In this document: positions 3,917 to 42,757 of the stretch, piece after piece
Numbering within the stretch: position 1 is the first letter of the stretch
Layout of the letters: each line of letters opens with the position of its first letter
IMG/VR virus record: IMGVR_UViG_3300035183_001077
Reading direction: 5' to 3' (one strand)
Origin: an uncultured virus (IMG/VR IMGVR_UViG_3300035183_001077)
Taxonomy: Duplodnaviria; Heunggongvirae; Uroviricota; Caudoviricetes
DNA length: 64,000 bases
Translations under genes and position numbers: made by a program
The notes under the pieces: model-generated
The model's database searches: none
Told to the model about the DNA's origin: nothing
The model's input: the letters and a program-made list of their open reading frames with translations, nothing else

Positions 3917-3941
3917 GAAAAACGGATACAACTTAATAACT

Positions 3942-4514
3942 TTATCCCGATTCATTTATAAACAATGAATCGGGAAAGTACACGACCGCATCACGCCGCA
4001 ATAATGAACGTGCGACGTTAACAACGTCATCAGAAAACGACGCGAGAACACAAATTACAACATCCTGCAACACACGGGGCAACAATTTTAAGTAGCGAAT
4101 ATCAACTTTATCGAGAAACATTTTTGCTAATGCAACTACCTCGTCGTACTTTAGACCTATTTTTGCTAAACTGTGGATTAGCATGTCGGACGTCTCATAA
4201 CGAAATTTACGGAACTCTCTCAAGCCTTTTTCTAAACCTAATTTAGAAATCAATTCTTTAAACTCAAGCTTCAGCATTTCTAACGTTTTGGAACGCTCAC
4301 TAAAGACGTCATCTTCTAACCATTTGTAACCGGCGTCTTTTTTCTTGAGGAACGGCAAGAAACTCTCAATAACATGTTTGGCGACAGTCAAATCAAGGTT
4401 ATTATCCAAACATGTTTTCAACTGCCAATCCTGAAAACGGCTCAGATCGACATCTGGAACACGACCTAACTTTGAGTAAACCAAAAGTTGCCGAAAGCTG
4501 CGAATGTCTGCCAT
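3942..4514 (-). CDS. Hypothetical protein
   Basis: 190-aa ORF with AAGGAG RBS. Confidence 0.7.
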   Translation of the reverse strand: MADIRSFRQLLVYSKLGRVPDVDLSRFQDWQLKTCLDNNLDLTVAKHVIESFLPFLKKKDAGYKWLEDDVFSERSKTLEMLKLEFKELISKLGLEKGLREFRKFRYETSDMLIHSLAKIGLKYDEVVALAKMFLDKVDIRYLKLLPRVLQDVVICVLASFSDDVVNVARSLLRRDAVVYFPDSLFINESG

Positions 4515-4677: not shown

Positions 4678-4749
4678 ACGCGGGGGCGGGATTTGAACCC
4701 GCGACCTCCAGGTTATGAGCCTGGCGAGCTACCGCTGCTCTACCCCGCA
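4678..4749 (-). tRNA. tRNA-Met(CAT), initiator-like; CCA not encoded
   Basis: Cloverleaf UGCGGGG-UA-GAGC...GCUC-G-CCAGG-CUCAUAA-CCUGG-AGGUC-GCGGG-UUCAAAU-CCCGC-CCCCGCG; A11:U24 and a weak 1:72 pair. Confidence 0.9.
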
Positions 4750-4846: not shown

Positions 4847-5254
4847 CTATTTAGTCAGTAATTCCTTAATTTGTGAATACAATTCTGGGTTATCATTCTT
4901 CAAATCTGCAACTAAACCTTCATGCCGCAAATAGCAATAAACGCCGTAAGGTGGATCACGAAACCAGGAAATAACAGCGTAACGTTCTGGACTTAAAATC
5001 AGGTAAAAACGTGTATTCAAGTCTTCTGACCATTTAAGTAATTCATACAAGGTATAACCGTCTTTAACCTTATAAATGTCATAATAAACGGCTGGTTCAT
5101 GGGAATTATGGTTGCAATTTGAACTAAGACATTGCCATTTCAATTCATGAGAAACAAGATCAAAATATTTCTGAACATCCTTTTTAAGATTCAAATTGTA
5201 ACCACGAAGCAAACCATCCTCAACCAACTGGACAAGGTTTTTCGTCTCTGTCAT
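4847..5254 (-). CDS. Hypothetical protein
   Basis: Start reassigned to ATG 5254 (AGGAGG RBS; ATGA overlap with upstream gene). Confidence 0.65.
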   Translation of the reverse strand: MTETKNLVQLVEDGLLRGYNLNLKKDVQKYFDLVSHELKWQCLSSNCNHNSHEPAVYYDIYKVKDGYTLYELLKWSEDLNTRFYLILSPERYAVISWFRDPPYGVYCYLRHEGLVADLKNDNPELYSQIKELLTK

Positions 5255-5430
5255 ATTGCTCCTCCTTCTTTTTCGGAGATTATACAAGTCAAACCAATCC
5301 CCAGCAATAAAAGGTCATTATTAAGGCGAACACCACAAATAGTTCCAATAATAAATAAAGTCAACCAAAAAACAATAAAATAACAACAAAACTCAATATT
5401 TTTTAACTTATCCAATATAAGCTCCCGCAT
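5251..5430 (-). CDS. Small membrane protein
   Basis: Two hydrophobic stretches; translationally coupled to the next gene. Confidence 0.45.
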   Translation of the reverse strand: MRELILDKLKNIEFCCYFIVFWLTLFIIGTICGVRLNNDLLLLGIGLTCIISEKEGGAI

Positions 5431-6319
5431 AACCACGTGTCGGTGAACCATAATGGTCAGTAAGGTTGCCAACTTCTGGAATGTTATTTAACTTCAAAAA
5501 TTCGGCAACTGCCTCAAACGGAGCAGATTGTAACACAACTTTATTTTTACCATTCTTATCTTTAACTACAGACATAAACGGAATACCTAAGTAAGCAGAA
5601 GCTTCAGGAAGCTCAGGAACGGATTTATCCAATAAATTAGCAACCTTAATTCCTCCCAACGTAATCTTAGGAGCACTTTGCAACGCTTTAATGGCAATCA
5701 TAACGTCGAACATAACATCTGAAATAGAACGGCTTTGAAACTCAGCTTTAGACTGAACTCGGAAATAGAAAAGATCATCTGGGCTAACTCCAGGACATAA
5801 CCCACGGTAAGCATCAGCTAAACAATGATCAGCTGCCATAACCATTAAGTCTTCAGAAGTTGGAACGTCAGAAACCGTATGACCTAATGTATTTTTCAAA
5901 ACCCAATTATTACCTCGACGAATCCAAACGTAAGGCATTCCAAACTCTAACTCGTAATATTTCATCATAACCTGGCCATAAGAGGAACCGTAAGGAAACA
6001 ATTTGGCAGGAACATCATAGCCGAAATCACCAACTTGATGATGGTCTAATTTAACAAACGTCCAACCATTAGGACGTTTCTCGAAATCACATTCAACCAG
6101 ATAAACCTTCAACGGCGATGAACCCTGCATATCAGGATTAGCATAACTGAACGAATAAGTTTTGTAAGCATTAGACGAAATTACCCTAACAAAACTATTA
6201 TCCATAGCAAAAGCAACGTTATTAGGACAACGATTAAGCAAAAATTTCTCAACGTAAGACATTTCAACATCTGGAGCACCAAGAACAAAAAGGATGGAAG
6301 AGTTGAGCGTCTGGCTCAT
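5408..6319 (-). CDS. Conserved hypothetical protein with DHH-like motifs
   Basis: LGAPDVEM, LDHH, GSSYGQ, AADH and C-terminal GSPTRGYAG; GGAGG RBS. Confidence 0.55.
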   Translation of the reverse strand: MSQTLNSSILFVLGAPDVEMSYVEKFLLNRCPNNVAFAMDNSFVRVISSNAYKTYSFSYANPDMQGSSPLKVYLVECDFEKRPNGWTFVKLDHHQVGDFGYDVPAKLFPYGSSYGQVMMKYYELEFGMPYVWIRRGNNWVLKNTLGHTVSDVPTSEDLMVMAADHCLADAYRGLCPGVSPDDLFYFRVQSKAEFQSRSISDVMFDVMIAIKALQSAPKITLGGIKVANLLDKSVPELPEASAYLGIPFMSVVKDKNGKNKVVLQSAPFEAVAEFLKLNNIPEVGNLTDHYGSPTRGYAGAYIG

Positions 6320-6400
6320 ATTTGCCTCCTGTTTCTAGTTTACATTATAGAAAAAATAAAAATCAACGAAAAATAAGTTTAATACCTACCAAATCAATTT

Positions 6401-6991
6401 TTATTTAATATTAGGTTCTGAACGACTGTCGTAATAACTCTTGCTAATAAAACTCGCATCATCAACATTGTAAGCCTCATAATGATCCAAACAATCATAC
6501 AAAATACTCAACGCCAAGCTTGGCCAAACGTAAGTATAGTTATTTTCTTCACAATTGTCATACCAATGAACAGCGAAATCAGCTGCCCAACCGGTAAGGA
6601 CGTATTCATTAAATGTATTTAATTCACGAACTTTAATGCCATCAATAATCGACCAATCTGAACCAGTCAACTGACGTAAATAGTGAATTAAGGGATGATC
6701 AGATAAATCATCAACGACAAACTGAAACCGAGGAACTTTCTTATCTAATTCACGAAGGAAGTCAGCAAACTCATCGAAATCAAGATCTAATTCAGGACAA
6801 ACGCAATCAGATTCAATAAAATCAGTATAAGCGCGGTAACAACGCAACTGAATATAACGTGGAGAAACCTCTTCAGGAATAACGCAAGCAAAATGACCAT
6901 CAAGAATCTTACCTTCATAAAGGCAGGCATCACAACAAGAATCACAATAAAGATCACCACAAAAACGGCAAAAGGCTCTCCATCGGGCCAT
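6401..6991 (-). CDS. Hypothetical protein with Cys-rich N terminus
   Basis: CRFCGDLYCDSCCDAC; GGGAG RBS. Confidence 0.65.
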   Translation of the reverse strand: MARWRAFCRFCGDLYCDSCCDACLYEGKILDGHFACVIPEEVSPRYIQLRCYRAYTDFIESDCVCPELDLDFDEFADFLRELDKKVPRFQFVVDDLSDHPLIHYLRQLTGSDWSIIDGIKVRELNTFNEYVLTGWAADFAVHWYDNCEENNYTYVWPSLALSILYDCLDHYEAYNVDDASFISKSYYDSRSEPNIK

Positions 6992-7056
6992 AGTGTTTCT
7001 CCCTCTTTTTGTTTATTCTCAAATCAAGAGTTCAAAAATTAAAAACTTAAAAACTT

Positions 7057-7170
7057 TTTGACTTCCCTGACCCTCGCCTTCCCCTTCCTTCGGAATTGCC
7101 GACTCCCGTTTGTTGTTTAGGAAGTCAGCAAATCCGAAGGAAGGGGAAGGCAAGGATCAAGAAAGTCAAA
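7057..7170 (-). repeat. 51-bp imperfect inverted repeat (long RNA hairpin)
   Basis: 7057-7107 pairs with 7120-7170; 6 of 7 mismatches become G:U on the minus strand. Confidence 0.85.
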
Positions 7171-7182
7171 TCAAAAGTCATA

Positions 7183-7246
7183 CAGCTAATTATTTGTAGG
7201 TAAAATTATAGTTTAAATCATATTCTTATAAACAAATAATTTACTG
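7183..7246. promoter_or_regulatory. Putative divergent phage promoters (AAATAATT motif)
   Basis: Motif on minus (AATAAT 7189-7194) and plus (7235-7240), each with a YR dinucleotide 5-6 nt downstream and then a hairpin. Confidence 0.5.
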
Positions 7247-7348
7247 TTCTTGTGCACGCGCCTTTTCAGGCGCGTGTATAATCACTTCGCTTATTTTTTT
7301 ACATGCTCGTCAGAAATTTTAACAGAGAAATAAGAGGGTAGAACAAAA

Positions 7349-8896
7349 ATGTCAAAGCTACAGATTAGCCAGTCTTTACGAGTATCTAGTGATGTTACGA
7401 ATGCAGTATTAAAGCTTTCCGGTAGTAGAGATCTGGATGTTTTCCTGGACAACGCTTACATGTGTGGCGATTTGCTTATTTTAATATATGGATTTCGTAG
7501 TAGAAGCAATAATGCAAAGGATGTTTATATTCTTGTTGTAAATATGTCGTTCGGTATGGTTGTAGCCAGTTATCATATCCCCTATCGCTTTGTATCTGAA
7601 CAATTGAATATGAACAGCATATACAATTTTATATTGCCAAAACCACTGTCGTTTATTTCAGGTAACAAGATTGCTCTATATTATATTGGCGAAGAGCAAC
7701 AAATATTAAAGCTGCTAGTATATTATATTGACCTTCTATCTGGCAAAGAGTCAGTGAATATAGTTGATGTAAGAGAGTGGTTAGGAAAAAACAAGAAAGA
7801 CGAATTTGGTTATCTTACACCAAAAATTAAATTACCTTCTTCATGCTATTACGACAGTATTTCTCACAAAAGTGTAGAACTTCCTCTCTGTGATAACTTT
7901 GGACAGGTTTCCAGAATTATCCGTCCCGATGGAGACCAGACACTATCTGAATGCTTCTGGGTAAGAACTTTTATGCTCGACCCTGATAATTTAAATAATA
8001 TGCAAACTTTCGATTATGATATTCGTTCTGTATCTACAATGAATATGGTAGCATATAGTGTGGATAAGACATATCCTTGGATATTTGTTGTTGATGCAAC
8101 AAAACAGCTTTTTACACGTGATCGTAATTTTACAATTCACCGATCACCTATTTTTCTCACTCCAATAAACTTAAAAGGCGAATATTTCTGTGTCCAGTTA
8201 CCACCCGTCTGGGTATCGTCTGGTGGAATTGAAGCTGAAGTTATATTCGGCGATGTAAATTACGGTTATTCCGAAAATGGTAATCTTGTAATTACAATGC
8301 CGGGATTGAACTACTATTCGTCTCCGTTCTTGCTTGGATCGAAGGATTTCAACGATCTTATCTTAATTATTAACAAAGATAAATATACTTGCGATTGTTA
8401 TCTTACGAGCTCGTACTCGTTTTTGAATGAAATAAAGAAGTTTGATTGCGGTGTGCGTGTAAATATTAAAGATGAGCCATATATGTTGCTAGTAAGTACC
8501 CACGTTAATGACTATTACAGGTTACGACGCCATGCCTGGGCGGTAGGTAATGATTTTGGCGTTTCTTGCCAGGGATTAGTTTCTCTCAACACAGGACAGG
8601 TTTTCAGTTGCCATGATTATCCATCAGTAAGTCTGCCAGCAATACCCAATGATCCAACTTCTCCAGGAGAGTTAACTTATATAACAGAATGCGACGTACC
8701 AGAACATTTTGTAGTAATAAGAGGAAACTTTAAAGGACCTGAAAAAGGCCGCTATACGTTGGAAAGTGATATATTTCTCATTAGTGTTTCACCCAATATT
8801 TCTATGAAAGAATATAACAATAAATATGCTGCTAGTTCTTCTCAGGATCAGATTATAGTAGAAAATAGAAAATTCATTACGCATGATTTTACGTAA
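7349..8896 (+). CDS. Hypothetical beta-rich protein, possibly a distant relative of the 14789-24533 family
   Basis: 515-aa ORF; similar size and Tyr/Cys/Ile-rich beta-strand pattern. Confidence 0.7.
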   Translation: MSKLQISQSLRVSSDVTNAVLKLSGSRDLDVFLDNAYMCGDLLILIYGFRSRSNNAKDVYILVVNMSFGMVVASYHIPYRFVSEQLNMNSIYNFILPKPLSFISGNKIALYYIGEEQQILKLLVYYIDLLSGKESVNIVDVREWLGKNKKDEFGYLTPKIKLPSSCYYDSISHKSVELPLCDNFGQVSRIIRPDGDQTLSECFWVRTFMLDPDNLNNMQTFDYDIRSVSTMNMVAYSVDKTYPWIFVVDATKQLFTRDRNFTIHRSPIFLTPINLKGEYFCVQLPPVWVSSGGIEAEVIFGDVNYGYSENGNLVITMPGLNYYSSPFLLGSKDFNDLILIINKDKYTCDCYLTSSYSFLNEIKKFDCGVRVNIKDEPYMLLVSTHVNDYYRLRRHAWAVGNDFGVSCQGLVSLNTGQVFSCHDYPSVSLPAIPNDPTSPGELTYITECDVPEHFVVIRGNFKGPEKGRYTLESDIFLISVSPNISMKEYNNKYAASSSQDQIIVENRKFITHDFT

Positions 8897-8913: not shown

Positions 8914-9336
8914 ATGTCAGGAGGAAACCAGCCACGGGTACGTTCGTATGGGCATGTAAAGTGCAAAGAGCAGGACAACGGTTTATTAAATAAACTTAAA
9001 GCCAATTATTTCAGAGAATGGTTTGATGATTGGTGTCGTAACAATAGAAACCCATCAAGACGTAAACCCGAATTAGATCCTGATCCTCTGATTACCTGGA
9101 TTGAAGAATTGTGCCCGGATCATTATGTAAGCGAATTTGATGAAACGACTATTTTATTAAGAACAATCCGTGGCGGAATATATATGTCATTAAAAACTCC
9201 GCCGTGGATGGCTATGCTGAAATACTATGGGAAAAGGATTGGGAATAAGCTGGACGAATTAATAAATTTATACAAAAAGATTTTACCAGATTTGTGTGAG
9301 TTAGAAAAGAAGTTAGAGGAAGTAGTTAGTTGCTGA
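8914..9336 (+). CDS. Hypothetical protein
   Basis: 140-aa ORF with AAGGAG RBS. Confidence 0.7.
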   Translation: MSGGNQPRVRSYGHVKCKEQDNGLLNKLKANYFREWFDDWCRNNRNPSRRKPELDPDPLITWIEELCPDHYVSEFDETTILLRTIRGGIYMSLKTPPWMAMLKYYGKRIGNKLDELINLYKKILPDLCELEKKLEEVVSC

Positions 9337-9387
9337 GGTTTATATTTGTTTTACGTTTAATTTTTTAAAAATTAGGAAAATAATTTG

Positions 9388-9628
9388 TTGCCATGAAACT
9401 CTACTTCCTCTGGGGGGCCCGGGCTATCGGAGTCCGGTAGCCCCCCGCTGCAGCAGCAGACGTCATGGCGAGCTCCCCCGGTCAGGTTTTTCCGGCTTTT
9501 TGTCCTGGCCGGGGGAGTAGTTAAAAGAAAAGCCGGCGCCGCACGGCCTGTGCCCTGGGGGGTCGTGCGGTGGTGGGAGCCCGGGCAGACCCGTGTCCTC
9601 TAGCAATAGAGGGCACGGGGTTTTATTT
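9388..9628 (+). ncRNA. Structured GC-rich ncRNA with two pseudoknots and a terminal terminator
   Basis: Stems 9388-9396/9463-9471, 9473-9486/9504-9517 (loop 9492-9500 pairs with 9528-9536) and 9537-9548/9561-9572 (loop pairs with 9580-9587); G:U pairs only on + strand. Confidence 0.7.
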
Positions 9629-9632
9629 TTTT
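9590..9632 (+). terminator. Intrinsic terminator
   Basis: 13-bp stem with GCAA tetraloop followed by a T-rich tract. Confidence 0.8.
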
Positions 9633-9697
9633 AAATTTTGCAAAGAAAAGTTAAATTATTTTCCTAATTATTAAAAAAATTAGAAAAATAATTTAGT

Positions 9698-9892
9698 ATG
9701 GAACTCACTCCCAAAATCCGGGAGGAGGAGGTTGCCCTCCTCGTCATCCCGACCCGCTTGGAGTGGGTTACCTTGGATCCCGCGAGCGTTTCGTGCCCCG
9801 CTTGCGGGTATCCTCTGGCAGCCCGTCTCACCGACGAGGACTGGGACGGGGTCTGCCCGGACTGCAAGGCTAACTTGACAGAGATCATGTAA
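9698..9892 (+). CDS. Small zinc-ribbon protein, probably leaderless
   Basis: CPAC...CPDC; no RBS; ATG sits 6 nt after an AATAAT motif. Confidence 0.6.
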   Translation: MELTPKIREEEVALLVIPTRLEWVTLDPASVSCPACGYPLAARLTDEDWDGVCPDCKANLTEIM

Positions 9893-10612
9893 CAGGATCT
9901 CTGCAGGTGGTCTTGCAGCCGCCGATGCCGGTAAAGGCTTTCGGTAAAGGCAAGGATGCCTGAACCGAGGGCTGAAGCCGGATAAGGCGGGGGCCCACCC
10001 GGCAGCTGTCCCCTGGGTATGGCTGCCGGGAGTTCGCACAAATCCCAGGGCGGTCGGGGGAGGCCGGTTTCCGGTTCCGGCCTGTGAACCCGGCTGAAGG
10101 GCACGGCCACGCCCTTGCTGCACGGTAGCGGCCCCGGTTGGGTGGGCAGAGGCCGTGTCGAGTAAGCTGCAACCGGGCCCCACGGTGAGCCGACATAGCC
10201 GTGGGGAAACGGGTGTCGGCCCAGAGGCAGGATTGTGGGGTTTCCGCCTTAGCCCCACAGCCCTGGGTTAAAGATGGGCACAAAAAAAGGCGGCGCCTCC
10301 TGTCCCGTAGAGGCCGGGCACGGGCAGGAGGACGACTGGAAAACCCCATCCGGCCTGCCGACCCAGGGGAGGCTGGACGCCTCTTGGGTTACGGGGTCAG
10401 AGGCAGGCCACCGCGGTAGTTTGCCGCGGTCCCGGCTCCGCGCTGGGGCGGCAGCGCGGATAAATGACAGGCCGCCCTGGAGGCCTCTAACATGGAAGTG
10501 TCATAGAGGTACCTCCAGGGCCTGCGGAGACAGCCCCCGCAGGAAGGCCTGTCTAACCCGCCATCCCCCCGTCGTGAGACGCGGGGATGTGAGTCCATAG
10601 CTAGGACTCACC
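9893..10612 (+). ncRNA. Large (~700 nt) GC-rich structured RNA with tandem H-type pseudoknots
   Basis: At least four hairpins whose loops have 7-nt perfect complements just downstream; G:U pairs favour + strand; no credible ORF. Confidence 0.7.
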
Positions 10613-10674
10613 GCAATGTTTTTTAAATATTCAATCTCATTTAATTTATACATTTTACCACAAATAATTTCCTG

Positions 10675-10706
10675 TTCCTGCTGGAGCTGAGAAGCTCCGG
10701 CGGGAA
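10675..10706 (+). other. 14-bp hairpin with GAGA (GNRA) tetraloop
   Basis: TTCCTGCTGGAGCT-GAGA-AGCTCCGGCGGGAA, directly after an AAATAATT motif. Confidence 0.6.
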
Positions 10707-10760
10707 AACACTTCTTATATTTTTTTACTTTTGCCACACCTAGAACACCAAAGATCTGAC

Positions 10761-10789
10761 TTGACAACTGGCTGCCAGGTGAGTATAAT
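10761..10789 (+). promoter_or_regulatory. Consensus sigma70 promoter for the array/effector locus
   Basis: TTGACA (10761-10766), 17-nt spacer, TATAAT (10784-10789). Confidence 0.85.
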
Positions 10790-10820
10790 ACCATCCCATC
10801 ACCGATAAAAGACAACGGTA

Positions 10821-11550
10821 GGGAAGGCATAAGATAGACGCTACTAATAATAGTGGAATAAAAGGCAGAAGATAGACTTATACAAGGAAGGAGATAGACC
10901 GTCGTAGAGATGGATATAATTCTAACATTAGTAAGGATAGTGAAATAAGAGGCAGAAGATAGACTAACAAATAGACGATTCTCACGTCCAAAAATTTAAA
11001 GGAAATAACTAAATGGACTGGCCTGACCTCCATACAAACTGGCGCTGTCTATCCGCCAGGGGCTGCGACTCTCGTGTATGTATCTGCATTGGGAGCAGAT
11101 ACTTACGAAGGAGCGGCTCGAATGGCTGTAAAGTCTCTGCCTTCAGGTCAGTGCCAGTCCATATAATAAAAACAATGGCAGAGGGTAGACGATTAGGGAT
11201 TACGTAGTAAGATACTACAGGAAAGACGTAAGTGTAAAGAAGGCAGAAGATAGACAATGCACAAAAGGAGACACTATAAAAGTGAATGTAAAGAAGGCAG
11301 AGGATAGACAGTGTGTCAAAAAGTATTATAAAAAGTAAGTATAAAGAAGGCAGGAGATAGACTATAATCTCAAAGGTAAAGAAGGCAGAGGATAGACGGC
11401 AACCCTGCTGTCGGTAGAAGAGGGCAGAAGATAGACAGATGATTAGAAAGAAGGCAGATGATAGACAGAACACAACAAATGAATATAAAGAAGGCAGAAG
11501 ATAGACGGACGTGATAAACAATAAGTAAAAAAAGAAGGCAGAAGATAGAC
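10821..11550 (+). CRISPR. Atypical CRISPR-like array: 13 copies of a 19-nt repeat with irregular spacers, interrupted by a tracr-like RNA
   Basis: Consensus AAGAAGGCAGAAGATAGAC; copies end at 10839, 10877, 10899, 10964, 11190, 11255, 11309, 11362, 11397, 11436, 11466, 11506 and 11550; spacers are unique. Confidence 0.75.
11013..11162 (+). ncRNA. tracrRNA/scaffold-like RNA with split anti-repeat
   Basis: Closing stem 11013-11029/11145-11162; hairpin loop GTCTATC (11047-11053) complements repeat 3' GATAGAC; CTCTGCCTTC (11135-11144) complements repeat GAAGGCAGAG. Confidence 0.75.
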
Positions 11551-11588
11551 GGGAAGTGATCAGAAAGCAGACGGGAGGTAAGGCGCCT

Positions 11589-12881
11589 ATGGCAGATCAG
11601 CTTCTGACAGTCAGATTTCGTGTTCCCAAAACAACCAGGTGGCAACAAGCCGCTTTGGAAAAATTTGGGAACATTTATGCTCAAACTGTTGTTAATCTGT
11701 GTCGTTGGGCACAAGACGGTTTTGATTTTAATGAGATGAGTGATCCAATTGATACTTATAGAATAGCAAAACTTTTGCCTTCATGTGAGGAAGTATACGC
11801 TGATTCAAGATTGTTGCACAGTTCGTTGAAAGCGAGTTTAGTCCTCGATGCTGCTTCTAAAATAGCTGCTTACGCTAAATTATGCAAGTTATATAAAGAA
11901 GGAAAGTTAAAATACCGTCCAAAATTCTGGGCAACGGGAAGGAGAGTTCCTTCAAAGTCTTATGAAGAGTTACTTGACGATGCTAAGTATAAAATTTTTG
12001 AAACTAATCGAGAATTTCTTGAATGGCAAAGTGATTTGATGACGTATTACCGTCCGTCTCAGGAAAAGAGACCACCACTTGGTGAATGCTTATTTTTTGC
12101 CGGTGCATCAGGTCAGAGGTTTTGCCATATTATTGCTAAAAGACACAACGGTGAACTTCAGGCCGCTGCTGTTTTGTTTATTGCAGCTAAAAATACACTT
12201 CCTGGATTGACTATAGGTCGTAGCGATGGGTGGATTGATTTGACTACAGGTAAACCTTATTACATTTCTACTAAGACAGCCATTATGTTGCCTTTACTTG
12301 TACGAACAGAATATATTAAAAATTTCATAGGAATGGCTCTGGAAGGGAAAGCCAGGCCTGCTGCTTCAAAATTATTCCGCCGTCGCCGCCATGAAAAGGA
12401 GAAATGGACATGGTACGTATCTACTACATTTAGAGTGAATTGCCCGAAACCCTATGAAACCAGCACTTATATCGAAGTCGAAGCACAATATAAAGAAGAT
12501 AAGGCTCCGTCAGTAATTGTAAAACTACCTGACAAAGAAATTGAGGTATTTTCCAACGTATATGATAATCATTTGAATGCTGTAACTCAACAGCAGCATG
12601 AACGTATCCGTCAGTATCAGAAAAAATTTAGATTTAGAAATGTTACTGGAATACACAAGGAAGGTGCTGTTTGGAAAATGCATTTACATATGGCAGCTAA
12701 TTCTATAATTGATATCGCCAGAACTAACAATTATGGTATTACCTGGGTTGGTGGTGCTCCACACAGGCTTAAACGTCTACCTCACTTTATCATGCAGAAA
12801 GCTCGTCTATCTGGAGTACCGACAAAATGGGTGAAAAAGATGAAAAAATCTGGTACGGAGCAGCATGAAGAAAAAACATAA
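11589..12881 (+). CDS. Nuclease-dead TnpB/Cas12-like RNA-guided DNA-binding protein (430 aa)
   Basis: TnpB-like N terminus (TVRFRV...QQAALE..Y), WYVSTTF...P.PY, H..ANSII..A and FIMQKARLSGVPTKWV motifs; RuvC-I/II degenerate; no Zn finger or RuvC-III; GGAGGT RBS before ATG 11589. Confidence 0.7.
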   Translation: MADQLLTVRFRVPKTTRWQQAALEKFGNIYAQTVVNLCRWAQDGFDFNEMSDPIDTYRIAKLLPSCEEVYADSRLLHSSLKASLVLDAASKIAAYAKLCKLYKEGKLKYRPKFWATGRRVPSKSYEELLDDAKYKIFETNREFLEWQSDLMTYYRPSQEKRPPLGECLFFAGASGQRFCHIIAKRHNGELQAAAVLFIAAKNTLPGLTIGRSDGWIDLTTGKPYYISTKTAIMLPLLVRTEYIKNFIGMALEGKARPAASKLFRRRRHEKEKWTWYVSTTFRVNCPKPYETSTYIEVEAQYKEDKAPSVIVKLPDKEIEVFSNVYDNHLNAVTQQQHERIRQYQKKFRFRNVTGIHKEGAVWKMHLHMAANSIIDIARTNNYGITWVGGAPHRLKRLPHFIMQKARLSGVPTKWVKKMKKSGTEQHEEKT

Positions 12882-13923
12882 CCGTGTTCAACCACCAAGA
12901 CTAGAACTCGATTTCGATTATTTCAGCAGGGAATTGTATTTTTCTTCACGCAGAAATACGGTATTTTTTATTAACTATAAGTTTGATCGCGTTTTTACGT
13001 TTGACTTACAAACATTTCAGCAGAATGGTCAAACAGCTATTCCAAAATTGGAAAATAAAAGAATACTTCACGTTCTTCCAATACCTCAGACAGGTGATTT
13101 TCTGGGAATATGGGGAAGTTATCAGAGTTACGATTTAGGCATTTTTACTGATATGGGAATTATTAAGCTCTACCAGCGGTTACCTTTTCTAGTTAAAGCT
13201 CCCTATTTTGCCTTTGAACTGATCGAAATAGTAACAGGTAATGATAAGATTATATTAATGGACTATAATAAATCGTCAATAATCGTTTTGCACATAGAAC
13301 CTGATACAAAAAACTATGACTTACAAATAATAAAAGCAGCACTGCCGGATCTTGTGTTATGTGATAGGCTGGTAGCAAATCGTTATATTCTCTGTTCCCC
13401 TGATGGAGATTACAATGTATGTTTATTTGATTTAAATACGTTGGAATATTCGGATCCAATAACTATTTACAGTGGATGCAGGAAATTTTATTATAGCCCG
13501 AAATATGATCGCTTACTAATTTCGTGCTATGGTACTTTGATGGAATTTCGTAACGCATCTGCTCATGGTGCGAATTATCAGCTGGCTTACTGTCGACAAT
13601 ATGCTCAGGGTGCTCAGGGGAGGATAGCTGAAATTCTTGCCTGTAAAGACGATGCTATTGACTGTTTGTGTATTACAGATCGCAACAAGAGGTTCAAATT
13701 AGTAAGATTGTGGCCTTACAGATTGTGGTCATGTTATGGAGAATTCAGTTGCTATCACAAAGGTATTGACTGGTGCGCTTTGGATTTAGATGGTGATGAG
13801 AAATATTTGTTTACTAAAATTCGTCGCAACCGTAATAACACCCGTTCTTACATAATACACTACTCAGAGCTGGAGGAGGTAAGCTATGCAAGCGACAGTA
13901 ACCCAGATCAATCAAACCAATGA
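12865..13923 (+). CDS. Hypothetical protein, beta-propeller-like pattern
   Basis: 352-aa ORF overlapping the effector stop; repeated short beta strands. Confidence 0.65.
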   Translation: MKKKHNRVQPPRLELDFDYFSRELYFSSRRNTVFFINYKFDRVFTFDLQTFQQNGQTAIPKLENKRILHVLPIPQTGDFLGIWGSYQSYDLGIFTDMGIIKLYQRLPFLVKAPYFAFELIEIVTGNDKIILMDYNKSSIIVLHIEPDTKNYDLQIIKAALPDLVLCDRLVANRYILCSPDGDYNVCLFDLNTLEYSDPITIYSGCRKFYYSPKYDRLLISCYGTLMEFRNASAHGANYQLAYCRQYAQGAQGRIAEILACKDDAIDCLCITDRNKRFKLVRLWPYRLWSCYGEFSCYHKGIDWCALDLDGDEKYLFTKIRRNRNNTRSYIIHYSELEEVSYASDSNPDQSNQ

Positions 13924-14788: not shown

Positions 14789-16156
14789 ATGACCGACCTA
14801 CCACTCATCAAGGTATCCCTTGATGAATTAAAAGTTATAAAGAAATATGAAGATTATAACGTGGGAACAAGTTCAGAAATTGTTAAAAATAACTACTTAT
14901 ATAGCGCTGGTTTGTTTGGCAATACTCACTCAGGTGCTAGTGAGCTTAGTATCTCAAAATATGACTTATCTACAAGAATGATAATCGCTATAATAACTTT
15001 TGATCTTGCACAAATATGTCCTAAACTGGCTTCCGTACTTTCCCACATACCAGGTTCGTTATACATAAAGTGGTTAGCTCCAGTCGACGGTGATGAGTTA
15101 TGGCTGATAGCAATTAGTACGGAAGTATTGTCCAATATCTTGTATACAACAAGTATTATAAAATTAAAAGCATCAGACCTTTCCATAATTGATATTTCAG
15201 AACGACAAATTGATGCCACGCCAGATAGGAACAATTTTGTTGCCATGACGTTTGGAAAAGCCAAATTAAAGCCGAAAAGTTGGTTTCATGGTATTCAATT
15301 AGAAATGAAACATATGAAATTTTGCCCATGCTACGATAGGTTAAGGACTACTTTCAATGTTCGTATTACAAATGGTCGCAGATACGTTGGTGGATTTGAT
15401 GAAGGATTGGATACTCCGGTATGGTTTGCCATAAGCTGCTGTAAGTATTATGACACATGCCTGTATGCTAGTATGGAGAATAGTAATTGTTATTTTGGCT
15501 GGGGAAAGAAGTGGTCTAGAGGCGGTACTAATATAGATAGATTATATACCGTCAAATTTAATGAAAACTTCTCCGTAGTTGAATTAAAACATGTTGACAT
15601 AGATGGTAAAATTATTAATGCATACCCTATATGGGATGTAAACTATTCTTTTTCCCATAACACTTTGATTTGTGTTAAAATGTACATTCCCAGATCTGGT
15701 ATAGAAATACTGGTCTTCGATGATGACGGTACTTTCGTTTATCAAATACCGATAAAGTTTATTATTGGTACGGACCATACTGGTACGTTCACTTGTATCT
15801 TTTCCGATGATCCAGTTAATAATTTTATATACTTCACTTGTTATAAAGAATATATATCACATGCTGTTTTAGGATATATAAGTTTTGACCACGATAGCAA
15901 AACAATTACAGTTCATGTTACCAATCCAATAAATACTGGTTATAACGAGTCAGATTATTTGGAGTGGGTCGATACTTACATACATCCTGAATATCTTTGC
16001 CTTACAGGCAAGTTCACTTATAAATCGCTTGACATACTGCTATTTCCCGTACAATGGTTGCACGATAATGTAATTAAAAGCGAAACTTTTGCAGCAGAAA
16101 GGTATGAATTTGATAAAAAGGAAATATATGAAGTACAGAAGAGCTGTGTATGCTGA
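14789..16156 (+). CDS. Tandem paralogue family member 1
   Basis: Shares SKYDL, MTFGKAKLKP, GRxYVGGF, PVWFAIxCC, LGYIxFDHD and FPVQWLHDN blocks with its neighbours. Confidence 0.85.
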   Translation: MTDLPLIKVSLDELKVIKKYEDYNVGTSSEIVKNNYLYSAGLFGNTHSGASELSISKYDLSTRMIIAIITFDLAQICPKLASVLSHIPGSLYIKWLAPVDGDELWLIAISTEVLSNILYTTSIIKLKASDLSIIDISERQIDATPDRNNFVAMTFGKAKLKPKSWFHGIQLEMKHMKFCPCYDRLRTTFNVRITNGRRYVGGFDEGLDTPVWFAISCCKYYDTCLYASMENSNCYFGWGKKWSRGGTNIDRLYTVKFNENFSVVELKHVDIDGKIINAYPIWDVNYSFSHNTLICVKMYIPRSGIEILVFDDDGTFVYQIPIKFIIGTDHTGTFTCIFSDDPVNNFIYFTCYKEYISHAVLGYISFDHDSKTITVHVTNPINTGYNESDYLEWVDTYIHPEYLCLTGKFTYKSLDILLFPVQWLHDNVIKSETFAAERYEFDKKEIYEVQKSCVC

Positions 16157-16177
16157 GAAATGAAACAAGGATAAACT

Positions 16178-17584
16178 ATGACGGATATACCTACTATCAG
16201 TATATCCCTCGGTGAATTAGGAATGGAAAGAGATTATCGCATCTACAATAAATGGCTCGGATCGTCAGAAATTATTGAAGGTAATTATTTATATGGTGCT
16301 GTTTTGTTCTATGATACGAACACTGGGAAAGGCAAATTTGTTATTTCAAAGTACGATTTATTTACAAAACTATTGGTGGCTATAAACGATTTTGATCCTG
16401 CACAAATATTTCCTAAATTAATGTTTGCTGCAGGTTGTGTCATACCAAGACTATTAACTCTAAATTGGCTTGTTTCAACTGATGACGAGTTAAGATTGAT
16501 AATATCAGCTGCATATACAACTTCATATGTAACAAACAACATTTTATGTATAAGTAGTGTTATAAGATTAAAAGCGTCAGACCTTTCCGTGATCGATGCT
16601 TCGGAACGGCAAATTGATATTACACCAAGCAATGGGAAATTCATTAACATGACTCTTGGCAAGACTAGATTAAAACCGGCAAGCTGGTTTAAAGATATTC
16701 GCCTGACAGTCGATAACATCGAATTATATCCGTGTCCTGATCAATTAAAAGCTACTTTCAACCTTACAACACTAAAAGGTCGCACGTTCGTTGGTGGGTA
16801 TAATGAGGAATTAAATGGTACGCCAGTATGGTTTGTTACCGATTGTTGCAACTATTATAGAGCGTGCGCGTATTTATATGCGAGCCCGGAGCTTAAGGGG
16901 TATTACTTTGGTTACAGAAGGGAACAACATAAGGACAGTGGTACAATCAGATTATATACCGTTGAATTTGATAAAGACTCCTCTACAGCCGGATTAAAAT
17001 ATATCGACATTGTTGATACTAGTATTCACTTAGACAGCAACTGGAATAGAAATTATCCACTTATAGATTGCAACAGCATGATTTTCGTAGGAAAATTTTC
17101 TTTCCAAGAATTGATAATACTAACCTTTTTTGATAAAGGTACAATAGTTTATAAAATACCAATAAAATACATTATTGGTGCCGAGACTGATCCTATTACT
17201 GCTTGGCATATCGACCGAATTACCTGGAATTTTTATTATGATTCGTTCAACTATTATATATATTTTGTGTGTTACGACGCTGAAGAATCCTTTGCTGTTT
17301 TAGGGTACATAAAACTTGATCATGACAGCAAAACGGCTAAGGTTTACATTACTAATAAGATAAATACCGGGCAATATAGGCCAGGCCATCAGAAGTTGCT
17401 CGACACATACATATGCCCAGAGTATCTTTATCTTACTCACAGTTATGCCCATAACAATTCGCTTATCTTAACGTTATTTCCTGTACAATGGTTGCACGAT
17501 AATATAGTTAGGAGTGAAACTTTCACAGCAGAAAAATATGAATTTGATAAAAAGAAAACGTATGAAGTGCTGAGGACCGAATGA
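16178..17584 (+). CDS. Tandem paralogue family member 2
   Basis: Same conserved blocks. Confidence 0.85.
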   Translation: MTDIPTISISLGELGMERDYRIYNKWLGSSEIIEGNYLYGAVLFYDTNTGKGKFVISKYDLFTKLLVAINDFDPAQIFPKLMFAAGCVIPRLLTLNWLVSTDDELRLIISAAYTTSYVTNNILCISSVIRLKASDLSVIDASERQIDITPSNGKFINMTLGKTRLKPASWFKDIRLTVDNIELYPCPDQLKATFNLTTLKGRTFVGGYNEELNGTPVWFVTDCCNYYRACAYLYASPELKGYYFGYRREQHKDSGTIRLYTVEFDKDSSTAGLKYIDIVDTSIHLDSNWNRNYPLIDCNSMIFVGKFSFQELIILTFFDKGTIVYKIPIKYIIGAETDPITAWHIDRITWNFYYDSFNYYIYFVCYDAEESFAVLGYIKLDHDSKTAKVYITNKINTGQYRPGHQKLLDTYICPEYLYLTHSYAHNNSLILTLFPVQWLHDNIVRSETFTAEKYEFDKKKTYEVLRTE

Positions 17585-18982
17585 ATGACAGATATAAGCC
17601 CGCCAAAAGTCATTGTATCTCTTGATGAATTGGGAATGGTAAAAAGTTACAGAGATGACAGTATGTTGGACGGGTCAAAAATTGTCAAAGGCAATTACTT
17701 ATATAGTGCCCATCTGTGCTATAACGAGAATACTGATAAAGTAGAGCTTGTTGTTTCAAAATACGATTTATCAGTAAAATTGCTGGTGTCTCTTGCAGTC
17801 ATTGATCTTACACAAAAATATGAATCATTACTTAAATGTTATGAACTAGGCGTAGTGAATGTAAAGTGGCTTACTCCAAGTCCTAATGATAGATTAGAGC
17901 TGATTATTACTTTTGCACGTAGAGGACAAATGTCAAATCCAACGTGTAATTTGTTGTGTGTAACAAAAATTGTAAAATTAAAAGAATCAGATTTTTCTGT
18001 GATTGATATATTAGAACGCCAGATTGATGTTGTACCGAATAAAGGAACGTTCATTAGCATGACCTTTGGTAAGGCCAAGTTAAAACCGGAAAATTGGTTT
18101 ACAGCTATTAGGCTCGCGCCAAGCGATCTGGTGGTGCATCCATCTCTTGACCAATTCCGAGCCACCTTCAATGTTAGAATGTCAAATGGTCGTACATATG
18201 TGGGCGGATTCAATGAAGGAGTTGGTAATCCAGTATGGTTTGCCATAAGTTGTTGTAATTACTTCGACACACGCTTATATGCAAATCTAACGTGCAATAA
18301 CCATTATTTTGGTTGGGGAATGAAGCATTATAAAGGTAACAATATAGGCAGATTGTACGCCGTTGATTTTGGTGAAAGTTTTTCTACTGTTGAATTGAAA
18401 TATACTGATACACGTGATAATAGTGATTTTATACCTTCTAGGTGGCTCAGATGTACGAATTACTCACTTTCATGTCGTCGCAGTATTGTTTGTGAAGAAG
18501 CATGTCCCATTAGCAAACCTACAACAATAATGGTTTTTTCCGACAAAGATGTAGCTGTTTATAAAATACCAACCAAAGATATTGCCGGTGATAATCATGC
18601 TAAAAGTATTTTGTGGAATTTTTACCATGATCCGTCCAACGATTTTATATACTTTGTTTGTTATGAATTCAGTGGACCAAACGCGGTTTTAGGGTATATA
18701 AATTTCGATCATGACAATAAAACAGCTAATGTTTATTATACCAATTTAATAGAAGCAAATGTTAATTATAGTAGTAGGCTAGGATATAAGGCTGTGGTTA
18801 ACAGATACATGTGCCCAGAATATATTTATTTGACAAACGATTTCATACAAGATTCGCGTTGCATAATATTGTTTCCCGTACAATGGTTATATGATAATAT
18901 AGCTGAAAGTAAAACTATTGCAGCAGAAGTATATGAATTCGATAAAAAAGAAGTATATAAAGCTCAGGAAATCCGTGCATAA
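17585..18982 (+). CDS. Tandem paralogue family member 3
   Basis: Same conserved blocks. Confidence 0.85.
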   Translation: MTDISPPKVIVSLDELGMVKSYRDDSMLDGSKIVKGNYLYSAHLCYNENTDKVELVVSKYDLSVKLLVSLAVIDLTQKYESLLKCYELGVVNVKWLTPSPNDRLELIITFARRGQMSNPTCNLLCVTKIVKLKESDFSVIDILERQIDVVPNKGTFISMTFGKAKLKPENWFTAIRLAPSDLVVHPSLDQFRATFNVRMSNGRTYVGGFNEGVGNPVWFAISCCNYFDTRLYANLTCNNHYFGWGMKHYKGNNIGRLYAVDFGESFSTVELKYTDTRDNSDFIPSRWLRCTNYSLSCRRSIVCEEACPISKPTTIMVFSDKDVAVYKIPTKDIAGDNHAKSILWNFYHDPSNDFIYFVCYEFSGPNAVLGYINFDHDNKTANVYYTNLIEANVNYSSRLGYKAVVNRYMCPEYIYLTNDFIQDSRCIILFPVQWLYDNIAESKTIAAEVYEFDKKEVYKAQEIRA

Positions 18983-18984
18983 GC

Positions 18985-20385
18985 ATGAGCAGCAGCAAAA
19001 CTATAACAGATCTACCGCTTGTAGAAGTATCTCTCGATGAATTAGGAGTAATGAAAAGTTGTGATGATTGTAATCGTAAAGAAGAATCAAGAATTATCAA
19101 AGGCAATTATGTATATAACGCTAGTTTTATTTATAATAACAAACATGGTGAGAGTGAGATCATTGTTTCAAAATACGACTTATCAATGAAATTGTTGTTA
19201 GCTGTTACGACTGTTAACCTTACACAAGTATTTGCTAGATTACTGTGCTGTAATGTCCTGTATACGTACCGTCTGGACTGGCTAGTTCCAGATACTGACA
19301 ATGAGTTGTGGCTGATAATACGCGTTCTAGATTATAAAGAACATTTACTTTCGGGCGCAATAAGCATTGTAAAACTAAAAGCATCAGACCTTTCCATAAT
19401 AGACATTTCAGAAAAGCAGGTTGATATTTCTCCAAACAGGGGAAATTTTGTTCCTATGACGTTCGGTAAAGCCAAATTAAAGCCAGAAAAGTGGTTCGAT
19501 AAGATTAAATTGTCATCGAGATATATGATACTGTACCCGTGTCATGATCAATTAATAGCTGTTTTTGATGTTAAGCTTTCAAATGGTCGCACATACGTTG
19601 GCGGTTTTAATGAGGGATCTGGTACTCCAGTATGGTTTGCTATTAATTGCTGTAATTATTTCGATACGTATATACATGCCAGTACGAAGCATAATAATTA
19701 TTATTTTGGCTGGGGAGGGGAAAAACGGTATGGAAGTAATGATACAGTCAGATTATACGCTGTTGAATTTAATGAAGAATTTTCCACAGCAGAATTAAAA
19801 TACCTTGATGCTGGTGATGATCTCACTATTGTCTTATCTCCTTATTGGCAGCGCGATGCTTATGTATTTACGCAGTGTAATAGCTTGATTTACGCTCAAT
19901 CACGTTTCGGTAGAGAGGGAATCGACGTAGTCATGATAACTTTTTGTGATAAAGATATAGTTGCTTATAAAATAACAGTAAAACGTGATATTGTTGATTT
20001 TGATAACAATAATCGAATTTATTGGAATTTTTATCATGATCCGTTTAAAGATTTTATATATTTTATATGTTGTGATCGCCTCGGCGGTTCAGGTATCGTT
20101 TTAGGATATATAAGCTTCGACCACGACAATAAAACGGTTACATTCCATACTACCAATACAATGTATACCAATAGTTCTGCACCCGATTACAGTGGACGGA
20201 TCAGAGCTTTTATGCACCCTGAGTATCTTTATTTCAGATCAGATCTCAAACAAGGTTCATATAATATAGCATTACTTCCTGCACAGTGGCTGCATGATAA
20301 TATAATTAAAAGTACAACAGTTACGGCGGAAAAATATGGATTCGATAAAAAGGAAACATATGAAGCTCAGGAAATCCGTGCATAA
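18985..20385 (+). CDS. Tandem paralogue family member 4
   Basis: Same conserved blocks; highly similar to member 5 at DNA level. Confidence 0.85.
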   Translation: MSSSKTITDLPLVEVSLDELGVMKSCDDCNRKEESRIIKGNYVYNASFIYNNKHGESEIIVSKYDLSMKLLLAVTTVNLTQVFARLLCCNVLYTYRLDWLVPDTDNELWLIIRVLDYKEHLLSGAISIVKLKASDLSIIDISEKQVDISPNRGNFVPMTFGKAKLKPEKWFDKIKLSSRYMILYPCHDQLIAVFDVKLSNGRTYVGGFNEGSGTPVWFAINCCNYFDTYIHASTKHNNYYFGWGGEKRYGSNDTVRLYAVEFNEEFSTAELKYLDAGDDLTIVLSPYWQRDAYVFTQCNSLIYAQSRFGREGIDVVMITFCDKDIVAYKITVKRDIVDFDNNNRIYWNFYHDPFKDFIYFICCDRLGGSGIVLGYISFDHDNKTVTFHTTNTMYTNSSAPDYSGRIRAFMHPEYLYFRSDLKQGSYNIALLPAQWLHDNIIKSTTVTAEKYGFDKKETYEAQEIRA

Positions 20386-20387
20386 GC

Positions 20388-21800: not shown

Positions 21801-21810
21801 AAGGAACTGC

Positions 21811-41950: not shown

Positions 41951-42757
41951 ATGCCAGAAAAAAGCATCAGAGTGAATAGTTTTGTATCGAATCTCATTAA
42001 AAATATTAAATTGGCCGCCACCGAGCCGCCAAATTACCGTCCCGCAGAAAACCCAGGCGTCAAATGTGGTACTTGTAAGCATTATGACAATGCTACTACT
42101 CTATGCACCAAATATGATACTGGTGTAAATGAAGGTTATGTTTGTGATGCGTTTGAACGTAAAAAAGTTAAATTAAGAGCTGTTACTGAAAGTAATGTAG
42201 AAAAACCTGACCTGTTATCTAAAGTAAGTGCAGTTTTATCTCAAGCTCAAGCAGGAATGATGCCGCCTCCTCCACCTGGTGGCGGTATGCCGCCAGGCGG
42301 TGCTCCGCCAATGGATCCCATGATGATGGCAGCTATGGGTGGCGGTGGAATGCCTCCTCCTGGTGGTGGAGGAATGCCCCCGCCTCCTCCAGGTGGAGGT
42401 TCTCCGTTAGACATGGCTTTAGCTGCACCTCCGCCGCCTGGCGGTGGTGGTGATATGGGTATGGGTGGTGGTATGCCTCCACCACCTTCTTCTACAGAAG
42501 AGCCTGGAAAAGAAGAAAAACCCAAGGAAGAAGAAAAATCAGAAAAGTCAACCGACGAAAAATTAGATGAATTGATTTCAAAACTTGACAGATTAATTGA
42601 ACTATTAGAAAAGAAAATGGCAGTTGATGAAAAAGGACCTGCCTCTACAGTTACTGAAGAAAAAACAGAAACTTCTCATGAACCAGTTGTTAAAGAAAAA
42701 ACTTCCAGTGCAAGCGATGATGTATTGAATCAAATTTTACAATTACTGAACGACTAG
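41951..42757 (+). CDS. Protein with a 4-Cys (HiPIP-like) domain, poly-Pro/Gly/Met linker and acidic coiled coil
   Basis: CGTCKHY...C...VCD; MPPPPPGGG repeats; start reassigned to ATG 41951. Confidence 0.65.
   Translation: MPEKSIRVNSFVSNLIKNIKLAATEPPNYRPAENPGVKCGTCKHYDNATTLCTKYDTGVNEGYVCDAFERKKVKLRAVTESNVEKPDLLSKVSAVLSQAQAGMMPPPPPGGGMPPGGAPPMDPMMMAAMGGGGMPPPGGGGMPPPPPGGGSPLDMALAAPPPPGGGGDMGMGGGMPPPPSSTEEPGKEEKPKEEEKSEKSTDEKLDELISKLDRLIELLEKKMAVDEKGPASTVTEEKTETSHEPVVKEKTSSASDDVLNQILQLLND

Follow-up and report, generated by a model that had tools for sequence, protein, structure and literature searches.

A putative tracrRNA-like scaffold within the repeat array of a phage locus that encodes a truncated Cas12f-like protein

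The RNAs that serve Cas12f proteins form two repeat:anti-repeat duplexes. The trans-activating CRISPR RNAs (tracrRNAs) of Cas12 systems have been described as characteristically forming a pseudoknot with the 3′ end of the repeat (10.1101/2025.01.20.633832), and nuclease-dead relatives are on record as well: TldR is a truncated, nuclease-dead RNA-guided DNA binder (10.1101/2023.11.30.569447), Altae-Tran et al. (2023) describe inactivated branches within Cas12f and several V-U groups (PMC10691335), and some sigmaE-linked dead Cas12f (dCas12f) proteins carry out RNA-guided transcription with single guides, no tracrRNA having been found for them (PMC13472631). The same account, by Hoffmann et al., mentions a separate dCas12f cluster beside CRISPR arrays from genome analysis only (PMC13472631). 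In the scenario set out by Altae-Tran et al., Cas12f loses its activity together with RuvC-III, the array shrinks to a half repeat near the tracrRNA, and a fusion follows (PMC10691335). The locus considered here lies in a stretch of 64,000 nucleotides (the window) from an uncultured virus of the Caudoviricetes (IMG/VR record IMGVR_UViG_3300035183_001077), in which an element on the + strand, at 11013-11162, sits inside an array of short repeats directly upstream of a gene for a 430-aa Cas12f-like protein. Judged from its letters and from its relatives, this element is very probably a tracrRNA-like scaffold. Our reading of the whole, to which we assign a probability of roughly 0.75, is that it provides the scaffold RNA for a miniature CRISPR system, type V-F-like and carried by a phage, whose dead Cas12f-like protein would bind and silence its targets.

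The scaffold and its pairing with the repeats

The array consists of 13 direct repeats, all on the + strand between 10823 and 11550, four of them before the scaffold and nine after it. Their 17-nt core, GAAGGCAGArGATAGAC, is mostly preceded by (T/G)TAAA, and the start-to-start spacings are, in order, 38, 22, 65, 226, 65, 54, 53, 35, 39, 30, 40 and 44 nt, so uneven a range that the spacers must be called irregular. The scaffold occupies the 226-nt gap between repeats 4 and 5, and the divergent repeat at 11174-11190 follows it by only 11 nt. After the last repeat come a GGGAGG ribosome-binding site (11573-11578) and the start codon of the 430-codon open reading frame (ORF). A promoter-like site (Table 1) lies 34 nt ahead of the first repeat core and was the sole such site on the + strand upstream of the array and gene in a scan of 10500-13000.

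Folded as + strand RNA, the element reached a minimum free energy (MFE) of -75.8 kcal/mol (z -7.66), which none of 200 shuffles equalled, and the - strand folded more weakly by 10 kcal/mol. The initial annotation of this region, made from the letters alone, had listed a closing stem of 17 bp interrupted by a single bulge, a hairpin with a loop complementary to the repeat, and a long central hairpin, and folding recovered all three: P1 has 17 pairs and a single bulged U, P2 has a 6-bp stem and the 9-nt loop CTGTCTATC, and P3 reappears over the same 60 positions (Table 1). Rfam contains no family that covers the scaffold, either at the gathering threshold over the whole window or at E≤1 over 9300-11700.

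Both predicted contacts with the repeat cross the closing stem and would therefore form a pseudoknot, and for this reason the pairing was judged from accessibility and duplex energies. The P2 loop contains GUCUAUC (11047-11053), and GAUAGAC, with which the repeat ends at its 3′ side, is its exact reverse complement. The second, supposedly unpaired segment for which the initial annotation had claimed complementarity to the repeat was confirmed as well: CTCTGCCTTC, at 11135-11144, is the exact complement of GAAGGCAGAG in the repeat core. CTCTGCCTTC has a single exact + strand copy within the 64 kb; with up to one mismatch on both strands it gave 9 matches against 2.06 expected, a number reached by none of 100 shuffles, and six of the nine are the repeats themselves, read on the - strand. 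The summed duplex energy of the repeat with both anti-repeat segments was matched by only 2 of 2000 shuffled repeats, and in the ensemble of the isolated scaffold the loop that holds anti-repeat 1 is unpaired with a probability of 0.87-1.0. Variation among the repeats falls, as had been claimed, at the two bases between the two helices (core positions 9-10: AA, AG, GA, AT), and the variant GGTAGAC keeps its pair as G:U. The two helices would abut, and the whole scaffold would thus in effect be an antiparallel anti-repeat for the 17-nt core, split by about 80 nt of folded RNA.

Related loci carry the weight of this interpretation. Three IMG/VR contigs (L001-L003) encode a protein 50% identical to that of the window, and a scan of metagenomes yielded only a 1-kb fragment (L004) with the N-terminus of the 50%-identical protein. 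L001-L003 belong to tailed phages; capsid, connector and tail proteins are encoded beside the locus, and the effector gene is followed directly by a scaffold homologue and then by the array. The arrays of L002 and L003 contain 29-34 repeats with the consensus GTCACAAGCGAACyATGGTGGGAGATAGAC, a period of mostly 66-67 nt and about 30 diverse spacers of 36 nt, some of which are common to the two arrays while others differ. The scaffold of L002 has the same architecture as that of the window: the closing stem has 20 bp and is built from other flanking letters, a CCUGUG/CACAGG stem presents the unchanged loop CUGUCUAUC, and there are also a central hairpin, a small one capped by GUAA, and an unpaired stretch with AUCUCCCACCA, the exact complement of UGGUGGGAGAU in the repeat of that lineage. 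The initial annotation had called both the position of the scaffold and its closed ends unusual; the closing stem proved to be conserved in the relatives, where the scaffold sits between gene and array, and the in-array position proved to be specific to the lineage of the window.

Covariation between these loci, the check that the initial annotation had proposed, supports a single shared scaffold that pairs with every repeat in two segments, with the guide starting directly after GATAGAC. Neither the GUCUAUC of the loop nor the GAUAGAC that ends the repeat differs between the window and L002/L003. When the repeats are aligned from that end, five of the next eight positions differ, and anti-repeat 2 changes to match at all five (CUCUGCCUUC with GAAGGCAGAG in the window, AUCUCCCACCA with UGGUGGGAGAU in the relatives). 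RNAalifold, run on the three distinct scaffolds, found 49 pairs, 11 of them compensatory on both sides; several are G:U, which on the opposite strand would read as A-C mismatches. Three of the six stem pairs of P2 are compensatory between the lineages around an invariant loop, as are three of the four pairs of P4 when compared with CCCG-GUAA-CGGG in L002 and L003. A covariance model built from the three scaffolds and searched over 103,111 bases (the window, L001-L004, L014, L088 and L090) found one + strand copy per effector locus, which for its own members holds by construction; it gave the window element 96.6 bits on the + strand, with no - strand match at E≤1, and gave 26-31 bits on the reverse strand in the L loci. 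Protein, scaffold and array form the module that the two lineages have in common, and they share none of the neighbouring proteins. In both, the 13-17 scaffold-pairing bases are the best conserved part of the repeat, and the window repeats retain nothing else. Other scans added little: a pattern scan of genome contigs gave three chance matches in coding DNA, a repeat-pattern scan gave nine single chance matches, a second repeat pattern gave at least 120 matches with arrays only at L088 and L090, and no viral loci emerged when the distant relatives P0005 and P0008 served as queries.

Two further features of the relatives were seen. In the contig of L003, at about 30.0-30.2 kb (L014 1497-1665) and some 24 kb from the effector locus, lies a three-repeat mini-array of the same family, with a promoter-like TTGAC...TACAAT ahead of it (by eye) and no scaffold copy nearby that the covariance model could find. 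Directly past the scaffold of L002, at 7467-7520 (L003 at about 3925-3975), a 14-bp GC-rich stem is followed by UUUUUAU, and its loop region contains a second, contiguous anti-repeat, GUCUAUCUUCCACC, whose pairing with the repeat includes one G:U. The L003 version is degraded, and nothing in the window corresponds to it. A terminator with a second role in repeat pairing is one possibility for this element, a relic another.

The locus was also compared with contigs from other hot-spring and mat metagenomes, a comparison between strains that says nothing on rare variants or depth. In one metagenome run (X2) the contigs are near-identical to the window locus. Another run (X5) differs at 109 of 986 positions in the protein gene, and over the scaffold stretch (11011-11171) by three other letters and one gap; the scaffold differences shown fall in or beside the anti-repeats (11051 A>G, 11134 T>C, and an A inserted after 11144), and the first of them, in the loop, still pairs with the repeat U as G:U. 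A third (X3) has seven other letters and one gap over 10999-11191. In X3 and X5 the blocks between repeats are skipped, substituted or added as extra units, a pattern that reads as that of a guide array in use, with one scaffold that would serve in trans. Past 10730 one X3 contig continues with the reverse complement of a repeat; there may be an array or copy in the opposite orientation, and an assembly artefact at the repeats is equally possible.

Table 1. Coordinates of the features at the locus (positions in the window)
Feature	Position	Strand	Basis or remarks
Promoter-like site, sigma-70 type, TTGACA-17-TATAAT	10761..10789	+	12/12 consensus positions; consensus match alone
Upstream array part, 4 more degenerate units	10823..10964	+	cores 10823-10839, 10861-10877, 10883-10899, 10948-10964
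Putative tracrRNA-like scaffold, whole element	11013..11162	+	MFE, z, covariance model, homologues in L001, L002, L003
P1 closing stem, 5′ arm	11013..11029	+	pairs with 11145-11162, one bulge
P2 hairpin	11039..11059	+	stem 11039-11044/11054-11059; loop 11045-11053 CUGUCUAUC with anti-repeat 1
P3 long central hairpin	11060..11119	+	single-sequence fold and comparative structure
P4 small hairpin GGCU-GUAA-AGUC	11124..11135	+	consensus structure; absent from single-sequence MFE
Anti-repeat 2, CUCUGCCUUC	11135..11144	+	predicted to pair with 5′ part of repeat core GAAGGCAGAG; covaries in L002, L003
P1 closing stem, 3′ arm	11145..11162	+	fold
Downstream array part, 9 units	11174..11550	+	start-to-start 30-65 nt
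Downstream cores 1-5	11174-11190, 11239-11255, 11293-11309, 11346-11362, 11381-11397	+	
Downstream cores 6-9	11420-11436, 11450-11466, 11490-11506, 11534-11550	+	
Gene of 430-aa Cas12f-like protein, RuvC truncated and predicted to be disabled	11589..12881	+	profile search, alignment, fold model

The neighbouring Cas12f-like protein and its phage surroundings

By sequence the 430-aa protein had no match in Pfam, PHROG or PDB, and a set of 5.8 billion clustered proteins contains only two close homologues of it, at 87% (P0002) and 50% identity. An exhaustive profile search returned 17 proteins at E≤0.001, and a second, word-index search added one. Pfam, applied to 15 of the 17 relatives, found the Cas12f1-like TNB domain (PF07282) in nine and RuvC_1 in six, with six giving no match. 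The alignment of 16 sequences (A2) leaves out the fragments P0004, P0006 and P0014, and a profile of 16 family members matched AsCas12f-type PDB chains at E 2e-16. The 16-sequence alignment raised the mean confidence (pLDDT) of the AlphaFold2 model to 79.7, from 40.9 in a run with three sequences. Foldseek placed AsCas12f first (E 1e-11, probability 1.0, TM-score 0.37-0.40) and, in lower ranks, Cas12k, CasX, other Cas12f proteins and the solved dCas12f 9n9c (E 1e-8); the TM-scores are low (0.3-0.4), as is expected for a flexible multi-domain model.

The active-looking relatives carry YLGIDRG, IVLEDL, a CxxC...CxxC finger and HxDxxAxxNIARR. In the window protein YIEVEAQ is aligned to the RuvC-I motif YLGIDRG, which puts Glu298 in the place of Asp, and ITWVG is aligned to the RuvC-II motif IVLEDL, which puts Val387 in the place of Glu; the window protein and its close homologues have Y(I/L)EVE and (I/V)(T/R)WVGG at the two sites. 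The chain ends about 18 residues past the strand that precedes the zinc finger, with TNB and RuvC-III absent, and the close homologues end likewise. Because of the profile matches, the fold model, the changes at the catalytic residues and the early chain end, we regard the effector as Cas12f-like and truncated and, as far as sequence can tell, as not a RuvC nuclease. When the alignment is read by eye, P0005, P0007, P0010, P0011 and P0013 also look inactivated. P0010 and P0011 lack the RuvC-II Glu (VVKGGG and VIVGGA, by eye in A2), and a C-terminal extension that seems, again by eye, to repeat the preceding strand-helix segment replaces their zinc finger. Pfam detected no Cas1 or Cas2 family in 42 ORFs of the window (9+33), a set in which ORFs below 120 aa were scanned within 5-20 kb. 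Adaptation genes (cas1, cas2, cas4) accompany some type V-F loci and not others.

The surroundings are those of a phage. On the - strand, 42746-48346 encodes a 1867-aa fusion of RNA polymerase beta and beta′ domains that is interrupted by an intein splicing domain, 38364-40304 a further beta′-domain-5 protein and 61892-62704 a sigma-70 region 3 protein; with a DnaB-like helicase and a dCTP-deaminase-like gene, also in the window, these indicate that the phage is large and has a multisubunit RNA polymerase of its own. A tRNA gene lies in a phage-like region at 4678-4749 (-) (Rfam RF00005, 66.5 bits). Tandem paralogous genes of about 455-470 aa with similar N-termini (MTD.P...SLDELG, by eye) fill 14789-24530 (+), and those scanned had no match in Pfam or PHROG. 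Just upstream of the array promoter, 9500-10625 is a GC-rich island with about 60% or more G+C (by eye), and in 2-kb bins the G+C fraction is 0.42-0.48 at 8-12 kb as against about 0.35 elsewhere in the window. Within the island are an ORF for a 64-aa zinc ribbon (9698-9892) and a region, 9893-10625, with a predicted fold much stronger than that of shuffled sequence on either strand (z -9.9 and -10.6); the region ends in a hairpin and T-run on the + strand, and its 3′ end is conserved in X5. Rfam gave it no family, the best being Pyrobac-1 with 32.6 bits, under the gathering score; it is possibly a large structured phage RNA. The stretch 10640-10728 resembles 7212-7302, which lies before the gene at 7349 (73% over 41 nt, 83% over 23 nt), and in contigs of X2 and X5 the 36 nt at 10614-10649 are linked to different sequence. 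The pair 10640-10728 and 7212-7302 may represent a repeated intergenic or regulatory element of the phage.

A proposed mechanism and the alternatives

A single transcript could start from the promoter-like site at 10761-10789 and cover all 13 repeats, with the scaffold between the fourth and the fifth, and then the gene. In L002 the effector gene is in its final codons where the scaffold starts, and a scan of 5200-7700 around it showed no promoter-like site, so that in both lineages the RNA would have to be cut from a longer transcript. A duplex of 17-20 bp suits a double-strand-specific RNase, and the closing stem could be the handle by which an enzyme of the RNase III type excises the scaffold, which would explain the closed-ends design. 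GAUAGAC, the 3′ end of the repeat and the part that adjoins the guide, would then pair with the P2 loop in a pseudoknot-type contact, and the 5′ part of the repeat, GAAGGCAGAG, with CUCUGCCUUC just ahead of the 3′ arm of the closing stem. The 430-aa protein would bind the pair of scaffold and repeat-guide RNA, and the ribonucleoprotein might bind DNA that matches the guide without cutting it and so silence it, the targets perhaps being competing mobile elements or host genes. We consider the odds that binding-only silencing is indeed the biological role to be about even. The broader proposition, that large phages of hot-spring mats possess a self-contained, natural multiplex form of CRISPR interference ('CRISPRi') with a 430-aa dead Cas12f, a tracrRNA released from the array transcript by way of its closing stem, guide units with repeats reduced to the 17 nt in contact with it, and spacer blocks exchanged without Cas1-Cas2, is doubtful on present evidence. 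If it were true, the locus would be an extant link between CRISPR-Cas12f and RNA-guided regulators with single guides, and a virus would have in it a new route to silence the genes of its host or its rivals.

Several observations weigh against this interpretation. The initial annotation had described both anti-repeat segments as exposed, which holds for the P2 loop; in the thermodynamic ensemble of the isolated window scaffold the six 3′ bases of anti-repeat 2 are mostly paired with the upstream GAAUGGC (unpaired probability 0.02-0.16), and this segment is exposed only in the comparative consensus structure, which has a small GUAA hairpin there and leaves anti-repeat 2 free. The gaps between cores in the window are 5-48 nt and two units are too short for guiding, a spacing that, to judge from the letters, is unlike that of a working array built by Cas1-Cas2. 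No targets were found for the guides: the 12 window spacers, with up to three mismatches, had none in the window, where one 18-mer match with two mismatches and some 13-mer matches were all at chance level, and none among 50,697 phage records or 72,556 plasmids; two exact 20-mers had none in IMG/VR, and two of the relatives' own contigs had none beyond the arrays themselves. Comparative support comes from two lineages, L001, L002 and L003 being near-identical to one another. That the protein no longer cuts is concluded from aligned sequences with about 20% identity, and Glu296 and Glu298 are invariant in three close homologues, which leaves room for a rearranged catalytic site.

Those invariant glutamates are an argument that the system destroys DNA after all, either by cutting through such a rearranged acidic site or by recruiting a separate nuclease. 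Rearrangements of the catalytic site in TnpB and Cas12 have been described (PMC10691335), and large arrays with spacer turnover do resemble immunity. We nevertheless regard interference of this kind as unlikely, given that Val stands at the position of the RuvC-II Glu, that the entire RuvC-III and zinc-finger region is gone, and that no partner gene is common to both lineages. A decoy that works against host defence would fit a dead-looking effector: the phage repeats, scaffold and crippled Cas12f would mimic a Cas12f system of the host and soak up its RNAs, poison its dimers, or load its Cas12f with guides of the phage's choosing. Both lineages are phage-borne, the repeats are short and degenerate, and phage guide-like RNAs that subvert host Cas proteins have been reported (10.64898/2026.06.01.729453, 10.1101/2024.10.29.618823). 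Protein, scaffold and repeat, however, have kept in step with one another, as a self-contained set, across a protein divergence of 50%, and a pure decoy needs neither the relatives' roughly 30 diverse 36-nt spacers with their turnover nor a second mini-array, so that we hold a decoy to be distinctly unlikely.

It is also conceivable that the dead Cas12f brings a sigma factor and the phage RNA polymerase to DNA and acts as an RNA-guided activator of transcription, as dCas12f-sigmaE systems do (PMC13472631); the window encodes parts of a multisubunit RNA polymerase and a sigma-70 region 3 protein. This we rate as highly unlikely, since the sigma-like gene is 49 kb away and shares no operon with the effector, the other lineage lacks a sigma factor and has only a weak helix-turn-helix protein upstream, no guide matches the window itself, and the dCas12f-sigmaE systems use single guides, with no tracrRNA (PMC13472631). 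Least credible of all, and hardly to be entertained, is the idea that no RNA is involved, the repeats being protein-binding iterons of a replication or packaging site and the element a DNA cruciform or a small ORF. Short direct repeats, irregularly spaced in an AT-rich intergenic region, might suggest iterons, and a 64-codon ORF (11013-11207) does begin at 11013 and overlap the scaffold. The ORF reading was rejected, as the two overlapping ORFs, in the window and in L002, are not similar; the G:U pairs and the difference of 10 kcal/mol favour one strand, stems compensate while loops stay fixed, the arrays of the relatives are regular, of CRISPR type and 66-67 nt in period, and the adjoining protein is Cas12f-like. 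A scaffold that serves a dead Cas12f-like protein remains, in our view, the best account of the locus.

The locus among known CRISPR-Cas12f and related systems

No paper was found on a phage-borne dead Cas12f with a tracrRNA, or on a tracrRNA inside an array, in a literature search that covered sources other than subscription journals and supplements. Work on dead, truncated Cas12f proteins has until now concerned regulators that are chromosomal and use single guides, those linked to arrays being only mentioned from genome surveys (PMC13472631, PMC10691335). To these the present locus and its relatives would add dead Cas12f in phages, a tracrRNA supported by covariation, arrays of up to about 30 spacers and, in one lineage, repeats pared down to the core that pairs with the tracrRNA. 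The system is predicted to offer a very small programmable DNA binder (430 aa, a scaffold of about 150 nt and a 17-nt repeat), it provides a test case for the turning of tracrRNA-plus-array systems into single-guide systems, and it is a possible example of RNA-guided silencing run by a phage.

Among the systems closest to it are those of type V-F Cas12f (AsCas12f, Un1Cas12f1, OsCas12f; PDB 8J3R, 8J12, 7WJU, 7C7L, 9NZQ), which the window protein resembles in fold and profile. The predicted RNA parts agree too: a dual RNA, pairing with the repeat in two duplexes, a pseudoknot-type contact adjacent to the guide, and a guide 3′ of the repeat. As in type V-F, a CRISPR array adjoins the effector gene, directly upstream and irregular in the window and downstream in L002/L003. 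Unlike type V-F, the window protein has its RuvC catalytic residues replaced and lacks the TNB zinc finger and RuvC-III, the ends of its scaffold are closed by a stem of 17-20 bp, the scaffold lies inside the array, and the repeats are cut to about 17-20 conserved nt with irregular spacers.

With the dCas12f-sigmaE proteins the window protein shares a shortened C-terminus in which part of the RuvC site is gone, a predicted binding-only role and the fold match to 9N9C at E 1e-8, although no similarity to the solved dCas12f is detectable by sequence. The differences are otherwise considerable. No rpoE adjoins the gene, the flanking ORFs lack a sigma domain, and the sole sigma-like protein is encoded 49 kb away; where those systems have a single guide of 85-105 nt, the window has one scaffold per locus and many separate short repeats; and the window system is phage-borne, whereas theirs is Bacteroidota-chromosomal. 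The omegaRNA of TnpB and the RNA of TldR share with the window the pairing of a guide-proximal 3′ end with an upstream loop and the service of a miniature RuvC-fold protein; they are single molecules with one guide, whereas the window scaffold would serve many separate repeat-guide units. No family of the Y1 transposase (TnpA) was found among the scanned ORFs of the window, transposon ends not having been part of the search.

The initial annotation had seen in the locus an omegaRNA split into one shared scaffold and many guides. The shared scaffold with many guides is supported; the direction of evolution that the phrase implies is not shown by anything here, and it runs opposite to the scenario printed for dead Cas12f, in which CRISPR and tracrRNA lead to a re-fused single guide (PMC10691335). 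With that path the locus has in common a protein without RuvC-III, repeats reduced to the tracr-pairing half, and a divergent repeat 11 nt past the scaffold. It departs from it by keeping an array, of 13 units, and a scaffold separate from any guide, and by having none of the associations with RpoE, relaxase or integrase. By analogy, the window looks like a stage of that path that still has many units. A split anti-repeat with a guide-proximal pseudoknot is the known Cas12f/TnpB design and nothing new. What is unusual is the combination of a dead, truncated phage effector, 17-nt tracr-pairing repeats with irregular spacers, and a scaffold inside the array; the locus is a variant of a known design rather than a new class of system.

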